Source: Thermoanaerobaculia bacterium (GTDB lineage: Bacteria; Acidobacteriota; Thermoanaerobaculia; UBA5066; Gp7-AA6). Taken from it: a stretch of DNA of 64,000 nt. The stretch is taken from the NCBI GenBank assembly GCA_035500755.1, contig DATJXB010000067.1, positions 36,023 through 100,022 on the forward strand. Reading direction: 5' to 3'. Below are positions 28,194 through 36,733 of this stretch, one piece after another. Each line of letters opens with the position of its first letter. The first letter of the stretch is position 1. Under the pieces are notes generated by a model. That model made no database searches. It had not been told where the DNA came from and saw nothing but the letters and a program-made list of their open reading frames with translations. The position numbers and the translations under genes are program-made.

Positions 28194-28952
28194 GTGAAAA
28201 GCGCTGTTTTAGGGCTCCTGACGCTCGCCGGAGCAGCCGTGCTCGCCGCCTCGCCGGGCGACGAGCGGGTGTACGCCTCGCACCTGATGGTGGATCAGGA
28301 AGTCACGGTGGCGGCCCGCATCACGGGCATCATCGACACGATCCTCGTCGACCGCGGCAGCGCCGTGACGCAGGGCCAGGTGCTCGCGACGCTCGAGGCG
28401 AGCGAGTACGACGCGGCGATCCGGCAGGCCAGGGAAGACATGGACCTGAAGAAGATCGAGTACGAGCGGGCCGAATCGCTGGTCTCCTCGAGCGTCATGA
28501 GCGCCCAGGATCGCGACGAGAAGAAGGCCCAGTACCAGGTCGCCGTCGCGACGTGGGAGCGGGCCAAGGCGGTGCGCGACTACACCGTCATCCGGGCGCC
28601 CTTCGCGGGGATCGTCACGGAGAAGTACGCGCGCCTCGGCGAAAAGGTCATCGAGGACAAGAACGACCCGCTCTTCAAGATCACGGCGGTCGAGCCGCTG
28701 CTCGCCCGCGTGTACCTGCCGGAGGAGCAGCTCCTCCGGGTCAAGGTCGGGGACCGCGTCGAAGTGGTCGCGGATCGTTTCCCCGACGTGAAGACGAGCG
28801 GCGAGGTGCAGTTCGTCAGCCCGACCGTCGACGCCGCGAGCGGCACCTTCCAGGTGGTCGTGCGCGTCCGGAGGGACCCCGCCCGCACGGTGCTCCGGCC
28901 GGGCCTCGCCGTTCAGGTGCGATTCGCCCAGCCCGCGGCCGGGACGCGGTAA
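28194..28952 (+). CDS. HlyD-family / RND-type periplasmic adaptor (membrane-fusion-protein-like), short form with N-terminal signal anchor
   Basis: GTG start (VKSAVLGLLTLAGAAVLAAS...), then the biotin-lipoyl-like motif ...VAARITGIIDTILVDRGSAVTQGQVLATLE...IRAPFAGIVTEKYARLGE..., a short alpha-hairpin and a beta-barrel domain. No cognate pump gene adjacent. Confidence 0.7.
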   Translation: MKSAVLGLLTLAGAAVLAASPGDERVYASHLMVDQEVTVAARITGIIDTILVDRGSAVTQGQVLATLEASEYDAAIRQAREDMDLKKIEYERAESLVSSSVMSAQDRDEKKAQYQVAVATWERAKAVRDYTVIRAPFAGIVTEKYARLGEKVIEDKNDPLFKITAVEPLLARVYLPEEQLLRVKVGDRVEVVADRFPDVKTSGEVQFVSPTVDAASGTFQVVVRVRRDPARTVLRPGLAVQVRFAQPAAGTR

Positions 28953-28968
28953 CGCCGGCCGACGGGCC

Positions 28969-29673
28969 ATGGCCGGAAAGCCGCGCTCCTCGGCCCGTCT
29001 GCGCACGACGCTCGACCGGGTCCTCGTTCACGACGTCAAGAACGTTTCCTTCCGCCTGCGGCTGCTGCTGTCCAATCTCGACGAGCACTGGGACGATCCC
29101 CAGTTCCGGGAGACCGTCAAGGAGCTGCTGGCTTCGACGGTCGAGCGCCTCGAGCAAGCCGTCGGGCGGCTCTCGACCGACGAGGACGCCGTCCTCATCA
29201 AGGTCTCGCTCGACGTCAACGGCCTGATCCACGAGGTCGTCGCCCGGCCGCCGCGGCGGCAGCGTCCCGGGGCCCGGGCGGCCCCGGCGCGCCTCGCCCT
29301 CGGACAGGTGCCCCGGATCTGGGGCGACCCGTTCTACCTAGGCGACGCCTTCGCGAGCCTGCTCGAGAACGCGGCCGAGGCCGCCGGTCCGGACGGCCGG
29401 GTGCTGGTGCGGACGTTCGCGACGGGCTCCGGCCGGCGCGCGCGCGTCGTGGTCGAGGTCATCGACAACGGATCCGGGATGACCCAGGAATTCCTGCGCG
29501 ACCGCCTCTTCCGGCCGTTCGAGACCACCAAGCCCGAGGGCGTCGGGCTCGGTCTGGCGACGGCCAGCCAGATCGTGCGCTTCCACCGCGGGACGATCCG
29601 GATCCTGTCGCAGCCGGGCGGCGGCACCCTCGTGCGCTGCGCGTTCCCGGCGGCCGCGGAGGCCTCGCCGTGA
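28969..29673 (+). CDS. Soluble sensor histidine kinase (HisKA + HATPase_c, essentially no sensor domain)
   Basis: 234 aa: H-box VLVHDVKNVSFRL; ATP-lid motifs ...ENAAEAAGPDGRVLVRT...VIDNGSGM...GVGLGLA. Confidence 0.8.
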   Translation: MAGKPRSSARLRTTLDRVLVHDVKNVSFRLRLLLSNLDEHWDDPQFRETVKELLASTVERLEQAVGRLSTDEDAVLIKVSLDVNGLIHEVVARPPRRQRPGARAAPARLALGQVPRIWGDPFYLGDAFASLLENAAEAAGPDGRVLVRTFATGSGRRARVVVEVIDNGSGMTQEFLRDRLFRPFETTKPEGVGLGLATASQIVRFHRGTIRILSQPGGGTLVRCAFPAAAEASP

Positions 29674-36357: not shown

Positions 36358-36397
36358 CTTGTCCTCGCCGAGCGTGGGCCGTGCCCGGTCGGCCGGC

Positions 36398-36733
36398 CTA
36401 GAAGCTGGAGACTGCCGCCTCGAGATCCTCGTGGATCTCGAAGACGGAGTCGAGCTTGGTCATCTGGAGGAGCTTGCGGACCTGCTGGCCGGCGTGGAGG
36501 AGCTTGGCCTGACCGCCCTCCTTCTGGGCGAGCGTGAGCGCCCGCACGAGCGCGCCGAGGCCGGAGCTGTCGAGGAAGCCGACCGCCTTCAAGTCGACGA
36601 GCAGGTTGGTCTTGCCCTCTTCGAGCAGACGCGTGACCGTCTTCTTGAACGTCGTCTCGGGCTCGCCGATGACGAGGTCTCCAACCACCGTCAGAATCGT
36701 GACGTCGCCGTCTTCGCTTGTCGTCAGGTCCAT
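36398..36733 (-). CDS. STAS-domain protein (anti-sigma-factor antagonist, SpoIIAA-like), first gene of the GAF-HlyD / M50-HlyD operon
   Basis: 111 aa from internal Met of table ORF 36398-38395: MDLTTSEDGDVTILTVVGDLVIGEPETTFKKTVTRLLEEGKTNLLVDLKAVGFLDSSGLGALV... Conserved DSSGLG phosphorylatable-serine region. Confidence 0.8.
   Translation of the reverse strand: MDLTTSEDGDVTILTVVGDLVIGEPETTFKKTVTRLLEEGKTNLLVDLKAVGFLDSSGLGALVRALTLAQKEGGQAKLLHAGQQVRKLLQMTKLDSVFEIHEDLEAAVSSF

Follow-up and report, generated by a model that had tools for sequence, protein, structure and literature searches.

A putative sigma-54-controlled module for the maturation and export of tandem-repeat peptides in Acidobacteriota

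Relation to described peptide maturation systems

The daptide protease MpaP is an intramembrane leader peptidase which acts on small leader-bearing precursors in dependence on a RiPP recognition element (RRE; RiPP, ribosomally synthesized peptide with post-translational modifications) (PMC10028931). The M50 protease EpeP of Bacillus subtilis has been proposed both to cleave and to export its epipeptide (PMC10885120). Here a module with partial likeness to these systems is described from a stretch of 64,000 nucleotides (hereafter the window) of a Thermoanaerobaculia bacterium (assembly GCA_035500755.1, contig DATJXB010000067.1, positions 36,023 to 100,022). On the plus strand it consists, in this order, of genes A (small periplasmic adaptor), B (histidine kinase) and C (sigma-54 activator), a sigma-54 promoter element, a Shine-Dalgarno sequence, a precursor peptide open reading frame (ORF) and a terminator. 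Converging on this operon from the minus strand are genes F (STAS protein), E (three GAF domains fused to a HlyD-type adaptor) and D, which codes for a fusion of a predicted RRE, an M50 site-2 protease (S2P) and a HlyD-type adaptor (Table 1). With moderate confidence, we read this gene set as an acidobacterial module dedicated to the maturation and export of peptides.

Like MpaP, D has an N-terminal RRE fused to an M50/S2P core, and the leader motif EELEERIAP found next to distant members of the D family resembles the ELExMEAP motif of daptides. However, the match of D to the NCBIfam model daptide_HExxH (NF041824; E-value 3.6e-52, residues 35–407) reaches 177.8 bits, far under the cutoff of 300. 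Unlike daptide precursors, those of the module end in repeats and have neither an invariant C-terminal Thr nor a hydrophobic core. Modifying enzymes are not linked to the module in the window or in related loci, where no MpaB/C/D/M-type genes were found either. D further differs from MpaP in its C-terminal periplasmic adaptor, its two adaptor partners, its diderm acidobacterial host and its sigma-54 control. Membership in the daptide systems was therefore rejected on the grounds of the protease score, the lack of modifying enzymes and the different precursor. The likeness to EpeP/YydH is that a small ribosomal peptide has its own membrane M50 protease, and D shows a weak NCBIfam match to the YydH/LiaK family (2.6e-11). 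EpeP, in contrast, has no RRE or adaptor, and its system comprises a radical-SAM epimerase, an ABC (ATP-binding cassette) transporter and a non-repetitive substrate. Another S2P with a cytoplasmic regulatory domain, SpoIVFB, removes the N-terminal pro-sequence of a soluble cytoplasmic substrate, pro-sigma-K, but its product is a sigma factor kept in the cell, and no adaptors, RRE or repeat substrates are involved.

With the C39-ABC transporters (PCATs, peptidase-containing ABC transporters) of class II bacteriocin and NHLP systems as well as type I secretion systems, this module shares a leader-bearing precursor and the proposed removal of the leader together with export. Their partners include a HlyD-family adaptor which bridges to an outer-membrane channel via an RLS/RLT tip (PMC3391258). 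The module, however, holds neither a C39 domain nor an ABC ATPase nor a GG/GA cleavage motif (double-glycine leader); a zinc S2P, RRE recognition and three adaptors instead of one are found in their place, in line with the preliminary description of the region, which had set it apart from C39-ABC, lasso and lanthipeptide logic. In the case of tripartite efflux pumps, the C-terminal lipoyl/beta-barrel/alpha-hairpin fold of D and the small adaptor A, which scores above the family cutoff and carries the RLS motif, correspond to MexA, AcrA and MacA. Unlike in these pumps, no RND (resistance-nodulation-division), ABC or MFS (major facilitator superfamily) partner is encoded in the operon, two of the adaptors are fused to 3xGAF or RRE-S2P, and the membrane-proximal domain appears to be missing. 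Neither a tripartite pump nor a type I secretion system is thus encoded, no energised transporter and no outer-membrane factor (OMF) having been found in the module loci or the 64-kb window.

Because the defining features of the C39-ABC, daptide and EpeP systems were tested and not found, the module is regarded as a member of none of them; judged by its genes, it stands functionally nearest to the C39-ABC/HlyD systems and in its predicted enzymology nearest to MpaP and EpeP. Literature searches, including leader sequences as text, retrieved no description of the system (a TMcin preprint was found to concern a different one), and neither the precursor nor the fusion is named by a curated family. 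The module as a whole thus appears to be undescribed; its RRE-S2P part, however, has a described relative in MpaP, so that its logic is not entirely new. The module would apparently represent a new route for the processing, and probably the export, of ribosomal peptides.

Gene set, promoter and conservation

The G+C content of the window is ~70% and its ORF lists are crowded with spurious frames; coding frames were therefore fixed by third-position GC (GC3) and then translated. Domains were called with Pfam and NCBIfam profiles, and structures are AlphaFold (AF2) models compared by Foldseek. Frames, translations and profile matches placed all four units of the preliminary description, together with their domain calls, where it had put them.

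A scan of one genome per species with an alignment of the D family yielded 80 loci, of which ~30 belong to Thermoanaerobaculia and ~50, at ~30% identity, to Terriglobia and further classes of Acidobacteriota; the cultured Granulicella sp. S190 (contig NZ_LMUD01000023.1, locus L054) is among the latter. The counts given below come from 82 related acidobacterial loci and refer to those with enough flanking sequence. In one motif scan, at least 592 genomes were found to hold a confirmed relative of the fusion gene. The module is complete in the ~30 Thermoanaerobaculia loci, at D identities of 45–83% and with varied flanks. At 72%, 54% and 53% identity, for instance, the flanks differ and the whole set is kept, namely the STAS, GAF-HlyD and fusion genes, a small ORF without Pfam match, the sigma-54 activator, the kinase and the small adaptor. 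The Terriglobia core, at ~30% identity, comprises GAF-HlyD, small adaptor, M50-HlyD, peptide, enhancer-binding protein (EBP) and STAS. In all 71 of 71 loci the fusion gene has the GAF-HlyD gene upstream of it, on the same strand, and in 68 of 70 a convergent sigma-54 activator gene is located within 3.5 kb downstream of it. A STAS gene is present in 50 of 54, and a leader-bearing small ORF occupies the gap in ~66 of 70. Since this gene order is conserved and the flanks change, both operons are co-conserved with the peptide gene throughout the phylum. The independent distribution which the preliminary description had named as a refutation is thus not what is observed, and its view of one integrated sigma-54-controlled system is supported.

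The kinase encoded by gene B combines a DHp H-box with HATPase_c (1.3e-19); neither a sensor domain nor a transmembrane (TM) segment was found in it, and its best NCBIfam match is the C-terminal part of PrsK (131 bits, cutoff 300). The product of gene C, which overlaps gene B by 4 bp, matches Sigma54_activat (9.5e-69), Response_reg and HTH_8, and GAFTGA is readable in its translation. With these domains and a -24/-12 element at its target gene, it belongs to the NtrC-family sigma-54 response regulators, the closest family being PrsR (TIGR02915; 439 bits, cutoff 502.6). The kinase is kept in the Thermoanaerobaculia loci and absent in Terriglobia, where the activator has a receiver domain or an unrecognised N-terminal domain. 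The parallel to the PrsK/PrsR pair of PEP-CTERM/exosortase loci extends to a low-complexity product, here proposed to be secreted, under sigma-54 control. In contrast to PrsK, however, B lacks the large membrane/sensor part, and neither an exosortase nor a PEP-CTERM protein was seen in the module loci. Identity with PrsK/PrsR was rejected, as both scores remain under the cutoffs.

The sigma-54 element of the window follows the end of gene C by a spacer of 123 bp and precedes the peptide start codon by 31 nt; the strict motif occurs three times in 64 kb, where chance would give 0.95. From the related loci 64 peptides, 63 of them distinct, were extracted. Of their 64 genes, 35 have the strict form TGGC-N7-TTGC on the 5' side (background 0.01 per 220 nt) and a further 28 a relaxed GG/GC form (background 0.10). 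Hence 63 of 64 peptide genes are preceded by such a promoter, in most cases 28–72 nt from the start codon, and together with GAFTGA in the activator this supports the sigma-54 control proposed at the outset. Furthermore, 20 aligned type-1 intergenic regions share GGTTGAA-N5-TCAACC followed by GTTGAA-N5-TCATC ~100–130 bp 5' of the promoter. The copies in the window are degenerate and lie ~85–120 bp 5' of the -24/-12 element. These inverted repeats are putative EBP sites in a classical EBP layout. A second canonical sigma-54 motif of the window (TGGCACCCGCGTTGC, 44039–44053, plus strand) is located 44 nt 5' of a gene for a 973-residue CarboxypepD_reg and outer-membrane beta-barrel protein (44097–47018).

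Precursors, fusion protease and adaptors

The precursor of the window starts with the type-1 leader MANEVKIRLTDAQKAKIKEATGKDLPEIHVESFGSTPAVS, which is followed by a short spacer (leader and spacer ~48 residues) and 11 copies of [RK]-[SA]-A-K-S-[ML]. It has no signal peptide, TM or other hydrophobic segment, and it matched no Pfam or NCBIfam family apart from weak NCBIfam matches to Lys/Ala-rich tails. Read in the annotated frame, the 11 units differ by 71 synonymous and 72 non-synonymous codon changes, whereas none of the other five frames gives more than 40 synonymous or fewer than 122 non-synonymous ones. This ratio singles out the plus frame, and therefore the peptide ORF, not an antisense ORF, is concluded from the codon pattern to be the translated and selected reading frame, with repeats apparently under protein-level selection. 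The antisense ORF (31293–31544, minus strand), which is open across the repeats with high GC3, was rejected as a real gene, since the leader is open and conserved on the plus strand only and the codon test favours that strand. The tandem-hexapeptide-repeat gene announced in the preliminary description is thereby upheld by the repeat analysis (Tandem Repeats Finder, TRF), the codon test and the leader conserved in orthologues, and the strong terminator it had noted is likewise present (Table 1). Equivalent hairpins stand 3' of the peptide gene in the related loci L001 and L002, and Rfam gave only sub-threshold matches at the peptide locus, all on the terminator.

Type-1 leaders (M-x-x-E-V-[KR]-I-x-L-T-x-x-Q-K-A-K-I-K-x-A-T-G-x4-E-I-[KR]-V-x3-G-x-N-P-A-V) occur in Thermoanaerobaculia and several other classes and are conserved in 35 distinct orthologues. 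Type-2 leaders (M-[AS]-I-Q-K-K-S-L-I-x2-[LM]-x3-K-K-A-x-[IV]-A) are those of Terriglobia, and a third type was seen in two loci. The repeats which follow the short variable spacer are wholly different between genomes. Examples are SAKSMR, KAMKAQ, KSPSL, LSGGKG, LAKGT, LGPNK, KAAPM, GKSIGARAS, LADRANPTA, DTSIESA, NSADLA and one 22–25-mer. Their period is 3–30 residues; the median copy number is 7.6, and the repeat regions measure 25–124 residues. The tails contain no Cys or Trp, are dominated by A, K, G, S, L, T, R and P, and are mostly cationic (50 of 63; nine are anionic and four neutral). Close relatives share a unit with concerted changes (LAKGT vs LAKNA; LGGKN vs LGAKS), the copy number varying between them. 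In about 10 loci the repeats of the leader peptides are weak or absent, and some loci carry two or three paralogous precursors in which the first ~20 residues are conserved and the remainder has diverged. A search for the leader in a collection of 5.8 billion proteins gave 11 short matches, all unnamed or "hypothetical", the word index being poor on such peptides. In locus L086 (9145–10090), the public gene calls show two 29-residue fragments in the peptide slot. The precursor family is therefore systematically under-annotated, gene callers often missing or fragmenting the peptide gene.

In the case of gene D, the GTG at 33898 is most probably the start; it gives 732 residues, as in homologues, and a GTGA overlap with the stop of gene E which implies translational coupling. 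The residue numbers below refer to the 717-residue form (ATG at 33853). The layout comprises the RRE (~20–100), HExxH (216–220), NxxPxxxxDG (311–320), a last TM helix (442–460) and an alpha-hairpin (509–563). Peptidase_M50 (PF02163) is matched with 28.2 bits (cutoff 27.2), and HlyD_3 and HlyD_D23 match as well. In a 24-sequence alignment reaching down to 25% identity, H216, E217, H220, N311, P314, D319 and G320 are invariant. With HExxH in a TM helix and NxxPxxxxDG downstream, the protein is thus an M50 site-2 protease. In the AF2 model of D (predicted local distance difference test, pLDDT, 82), a beta3-alpha3 domain at the N-terminus is followed by a helical membrane core, a last TM helix at about 438–460 and a lipoyl/beta-barrel/alpha-hairpin module. 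The latter matches MexA, AcrA, MacA and ZneB (Foldseek E-value 6e-15, TM-score up to 0.68 relative to the target). A separate model of residues 1–135 (pLDDT 85.7) has strands at 26–32, 35–42 and 47–52 and helices at 53–60, 68–78 and 87–97. Its top Foldseek matches in the PDB are leader-bound TbiB1 (TM-score 0.72–0.74, root-mean-square deviation ~3 A), the CteB RRE and lasso B1. The N-terminal domain is accordingly modelled as an RRE fold, winged-helix-like, with a three-stranded antiparallel sheet followed by three helices. By sequence, the RRE and S2P parts gave nothing significant against the PDB. By positive-inside statistics, the RRE is cytoplasmic and the adaptor periplasmic. The RRE-S2P-HlyD call for D thus stands, with the RRE supported by predicted structure, the S2P by the invariant catalytic motifs and the adaptor by Pfam/NCBIfam and Foldseek. 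Conserved leaders are always adjacent to the fusion gene, an indirect hint that the RRE may bind the precursor leader. The D family (~731 residues) is well conserved in Thermoanaerobaculia/Acidobacteriota. It is labelled "HlyD family efflux transporter periplasmic adaptor subunit" by NCBI and "putative peptide zinc metalloprotease protein" by JGI, which we take to be a yydH-type label.

Gene A scores 149.6 bits against TIGR01730 (RND_mfp; cutoff 94.9), matches HlyD_D23 and HlyD_3 and has one N-terminal hydrophobic segment (signal/anchor). E contains three cytoplasmic GAF stretches (GAF/GAF_2/GAF_3), one TM helix (558–576) and a periplasmic HlyD_D23 domain (1e-21), and starts at a TTG with GAGGA 5' of it. 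Of the three HlyD-family adaptors, only A exceeds the TIGR01730 cutoff, E falling just below it (94.1 bits) and D clearly so (75.3 bits), but both pass HlyD_D23/HlyD_3. The TIGR01730 matches end at model position ~245–249 of 322; the membrane-proximal domain is therefore apparently missing. F is a STAS protein (9.1e-18) which exceeds the cutoff of the anti-sigma-factor-antagonist family TIGR00377 (68.6 bits, cutoff 53.45) and shows the phosphorylatable-serine motif FLDSSGLG. All three genes of the convergent STAS / GAF3-HlyD / RRE-S2P-HlyD operon, and their domains, are consequently as first described.

The hairpin-tip RLS motif is the TolC-binding interface of MacA, AcrA, MexA and HlyD (PMC3391258). 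Among the three adaptors it is carried by A only, as R92-x3-L96-x6-S103. It recurs in the 65 orthologues aligned (R in 65 of 65, L/M in 64 and S/T in 52); an orthologue of A is present in 74 loci. The small adaptor heads the kinase-activator operon in Thermoanaerobaculia. In the Terriglobia layout of Granulicella and L086, its gene stands between E and D, and a kinase is missing. This placement, together with the RLS motif, leads us to read gene A as a third, core structural adaptor subunit rather than a kinase-specific sensor. Of the "periplasmic adaptor-like sensor" originally suggested, the adaptor part is therefore retained, and the sensor part, with kinase B as its partner, is set aside. 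In a Thermoanaerobaculia subclade (8 loci), a ~355-residue multi-TM protein with the N-terminus ..FVNNPGDWGH.. and no recorded Pfam match is encoded on the strand of the small adaptor and directly upstream of it (L002, 16521–17585; L003, 15775–16860, minus strand). Perhaps the regulator/adaptor operon has been extended by it in this lineage.

The RRE-M50 core extends to 1,304 clusters at 50% identity (E <= 1e-30), most of which, at 690–820 residues, are therefore adaptor-fused; the cluster names of distant members are mostly uninformative on taxonomy. Distant members occur without activator, GAF-adaptor and STAS, beside small ORFs with the leader IEELEERIAP. In L089, seven tandem small ORFs with this leader and G/N/P-rich cores (98–2459, plus strand) lie upstream of an 815-residue RRE-M50-HlyD gene, and a PCMT-type methyltransferase gene (5118–5729, plus strand) lies downstream of the fusion. 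The locus looks like a distinct multi-precursor RiPP-like cluster with the same protease family. L088 holds one K/S/H/D-rich ORF of 127 residues with an IEELEERIAP-type leader, and L085 one with a twofold repeat. L084 encodes a 447-residue protein (10423–11766, plus strand) starting MRNLRAGSSGFEALEDRILLAGDV.. (..EALEDRILLAG), directly 3' of a distant M50-HlyD fusion and 5' of a small adaptor. The resemblance of its LEDRxLL motif to the EELEERIAP leaders hints that some members of the family may process full-size proteins. In the RRE-M50-HlyD fusion, diderm bacteria thus seem to have a general platform for leader-dependent maturation, of which the acidobacterial version with sigma-54 control, GAF, STAS and tandem repeats is one distinctive branch.

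Proposed pathway, alternatives and neighbouring genes

In the pathway we propose, kinase B would phosphorylate activator C (in Terriglobia a kinase-less activator would take this part), which would bind the upstream inverted repeats and fire a sigma-54 promoter driving the short precursor gene only. The precursor, a conserved ~45-residue leader with a low-complexity, usually polycationic repeat tail, would be made in the cytoplasm. There its leader would be captured by the N-terminal RRE of D and then removed by the site-2-type metalloprotease at the inner membrane face. The MexA-like adaptor domains of D and E and the small adaptor A may form a hetero-oligomeric, envelope-spanning part. The RLS hairpin tip of A would dock an unlinked TolC-type channel, through which the unmodified repeat polypeptide would leave, and the GAF domains of E together with STAS protein F could gate or tune the machine from the cytoplasmic side. 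Given the rapid species-specific divergence and the mostly cationic composition of the tails, the released polypeptide would fit best as an extracellular interaction molecule, be it a signal, an antagonist or a matrix component. A bolder version is offered tentatively, as a real possibility which we hold to be less likely than not. In it, D, E and A would constitute an unrecognised envelope-spanning secretion apparatus with no ABC/RND/MFS motor and with the protease in the inner-membrane position. Its cargo would be a new class of unmodified tandem-repeat polypeptides deployed outside the cell under sigma-54 control.

Several observations weigh against maturation coupled to export. No ABC, RND or MFS transporter or other ATPase is linked to the module in any lineage examined; an MFS gene adjoining the Granulicella locus is not conserved, and the nearest MacB-like gene of the window is 24 kb off. 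An OMF was likewise not found in the neighbourhoods, nor an OEP-domain gene in the 64-kb window, and it may be encoded elsewhere in the genome. Hence the energy source and the channel are not accounted for in cis, and the "self-contained" module of the preliminary description is so in its co-conserved gene set, but not in the sense of an OMF and an energised transporter linked to it. D and E lack the RLS motif and their hairpins are short. The match of D to PqqD (PF05402; residues 38–82, E-value 1.1e-4) reaches 22.9 bits against a gathering threshold of 23.4, PF05402 being recorded for some D orthologues in precomputed annotation. The substrates are hydrophilic, and site-2 proteases classically cut membrane-embedded or amphipathic segments; this and the lack of a motor or OMF in cis weigh most. 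Finally, there is neither an immunity gene nor a receptor-type kinase to point to one extracellular role or another.

The lack of a linked transporter or OMF would be expected if the module served regulated intramembrane proteolysis with no export at all. As in the case of SpoIVFB and pro-sigma-K, the S2P domain would take off the leader, and the tail or leader would then be released in the cytoplasm as a regulator or as a polyanion- or DNA-binding factor, the HlyD-like domains would be envelope sensors or anchors, and GAF and STAS would transmit signals. The module is indeed rich in regulatory domains (3xGAF, STAS with its phosphoserine motif, EBP), the peptide is predicted to be soluble and cytoplasmic at synthesis, its Ala/Lys-rich repeats resemble histone-H1-like bacterial proteins, and there are the weak NCBIfam matches mentioned above. 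Under such a scheme, however, three MexA-type adaptors, one of them with an RLS motif, would lack an obvious purpose. The nine acidic and four neutral tails among the 63 argue against common polyanion binding, and hypervariability among close relatives is unusual for an intracellular regulator of conserved targets. We therefore consider it improbable, if the best of the alternatives.

It is quite unlikely that the tails are unmodified cationic bacteriocins directed at competitors and diversified by an arms race. The polycationic, A/K/G/L-rich composition of 50 of the 63 tails would suit such a role, a leader with dedicated protease and export is the layout of class II bacteriocins and RiPPs, and related M50 proteases mature the antimicrobial epipeptides and daptides. 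But no immunity gene is conserved in the module, anionic and proline-rich tails occur, no amphipathic pattern is common to the units, and the PADLOC and Pfam scans returned no toxin-like match.

About as little credit is given to a multi-copy precursor, of which pheromone and neuropeptide precursors are the analogy; the exported tail would be cut at each repeat into 5–20 copies of a species-specific diffusible signal of 3–12 residues. The repeats are near-perfect and many (up to ~22 copies), the unit is species-specific and homogenised within a gene, most units hold a single Lys or Arg as a possible cleavage mark, and the peptide gene adjoins a two-component/EBP regulator. Some units, however, measure only 3 residues (TAK, GRA, KAT) and others 22–30, several (NSADLA, DTSIESA, AQDLS) have no basic residue, and ~10 loci have weak or no repeats. 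The kinase has no membrane or sensor domain and is missing in Terriglobia, so that no receptor is evident, and no second protease is conserved in the module.

That there is no integrated system, the peptide ORF being an untranslated low-complexity region between operons adjacent by chance, is most improbable and effectively refuted by the comparative data: the open antisense ORF with its high GC3 and the frequent failure of gene callers would fit it, but the amino-acid sequence of the leader is conserved between classes, with Shine-Dalgarno sequence and sigma-54 promoter, the codon-difference ratio picks the plus frame, the gene order is kept phylum-wide with changing flanks, and no Rfam family fits.

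Should maturation and export prove the right reading, the passage of a hydrophilic polypeptide through the inner membrane, with nothing but a site-2 protease and adaptors, would call for an explanation. In soils the Acidobacteriota count among the most abundant bacteria, but very few of the products they secrete, or of their systems for cell-cell interaction, are known; the module occurs in hundreds of species-level genomes and defines an unannotated precursor-peptide family. RRE-guided leader removal, a feature of Gram-positive RiPP pathways (daptides), would thereby gain a diderm version fused to adaptors. The species-specific repeats might serve as marks of kin or strain identity, as antagonists or as a part of the extracellular matrix, and since a cultured Granulicella carries the system, it is experimentally tractable.

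Table 1. Features of the module and of the gene divergent from it, in window coordinates.
Feature	Position	Strand	Basis or remark
Conserved hypothetical protein, 114 aa	27807-28151	-	Divergent from gene A; high GC3
Gene A, small periplasmic adaptor, 252 aa	28194-28952	+	TIGR01730
Gene B, soluble histidine kinase, 234 aa	28969-29673	+	H-box HDVKN, HATPase_c
Gene C, NtrC-family sigma-54 activator, 456 aa	29670-31040	+	REC, AAA+ with GAFTGA, HTH_8
Putative upstream activating sequence (UAS), two degenerate inverted repeats, AGATTAATTATTCAACC and GAGTTAATTTTTCATCC	31043-31082	+	Orthologue alignment
Sigma-54 -24/-12 element, TGGCCCCGGTCTTGC (TGGC / TTGC)	31164-31178	+	Motif scan
Shine-Dalgarno sequence, AGGAGGG	31193-31199	+	Read from sequence
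Precursor peptide ORF, 114 aa	31210-31554	+	Leader and 11 hexapeptide units
Tandem repeat, period 18 bp, 10.6 copies	31358-31548	+	TRF
Intrinsic terminator, stem AACGCCCCGC / GCGGGGCGTT and T9	31572-31602	+	GC-rich hairpin ending the peptide transcription unit
Gene D, RRE + M50 + HlyD	31700-33898 (732 aa, likelier) or 31700-33853 (717 aa)	-	
Gene E, 3xGAF + TM + HlyD, 820 aa	33895-36357	-	
Gene F, STAS protein, 111 aa	36398-36733	-	

The hypothetical protein divergent from gene A has counterparts of 57–87% identity in 14 other Thermoanaerobaculia loci, in each of them divergent from the small-adaptor gene. No Pfam or PADLOC match was obtained for it. Because it is absent from the Terriglobia loci, it is not counted as core and is a possible lineage-specific accessory. 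Directly upstream of the module, a DGQHR-domain / DndB-DpdB-like protein (26530–27657, minus strand; TIGR03187, 120 bits) is encoded next to LemA (25878–26471) and an M48 peptidase (24904–25857), an arrangement also found in L001. An anti-phage defence system was considered and rejected, PADLOC having given only a generic AAA+ match and this DGQHR gene.

On the other side, a separate RiPP-type cluster (38031–40278 and 43205–43672, plus strand) adjoins the module and comprises a 154-residue ORF without Pfam match, an MbnB/TglH/ChrH (DUF692) gene (4.6e-108), DUF2063/HvfC_N and, further on, DoxX. It is present in the closest relative, L001, and absent from L002 and L003, and is therefore not part of the sigma-54 peptide module. 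Its MbnB/TglH/ChrH and DUF2063 genes, and a proline iminopeptidase, were rejected as modifying enzymes for the precursor, as they accompany the module only in the closest relatives and are absent from L002, L003 and Terriglobia. A conserved hydrolase was not found in the neighbourhood of the loci either.

Two further groups of genes, a LytTR-type two-component pair (57879–59865, minus strand) and a PadR regulator followed by a fused MacB_PCD/FtsX permease of 884 residues (60498–63494, plus strand), are far from the module, and no link to it was seen. Elsewhere in the window (7360–10425, minus strand), formate dehydrogenase alpha is encoded as two same-frame ORFs separated by an in-frame TGA (9850–9852; context ..ARV-TGA-HGPTV..), and FdhE, cytochrome b and an Fe-S subunit follow. 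The TGA is most likely a selenocysteine codon rather than the mark of a pseudogene.

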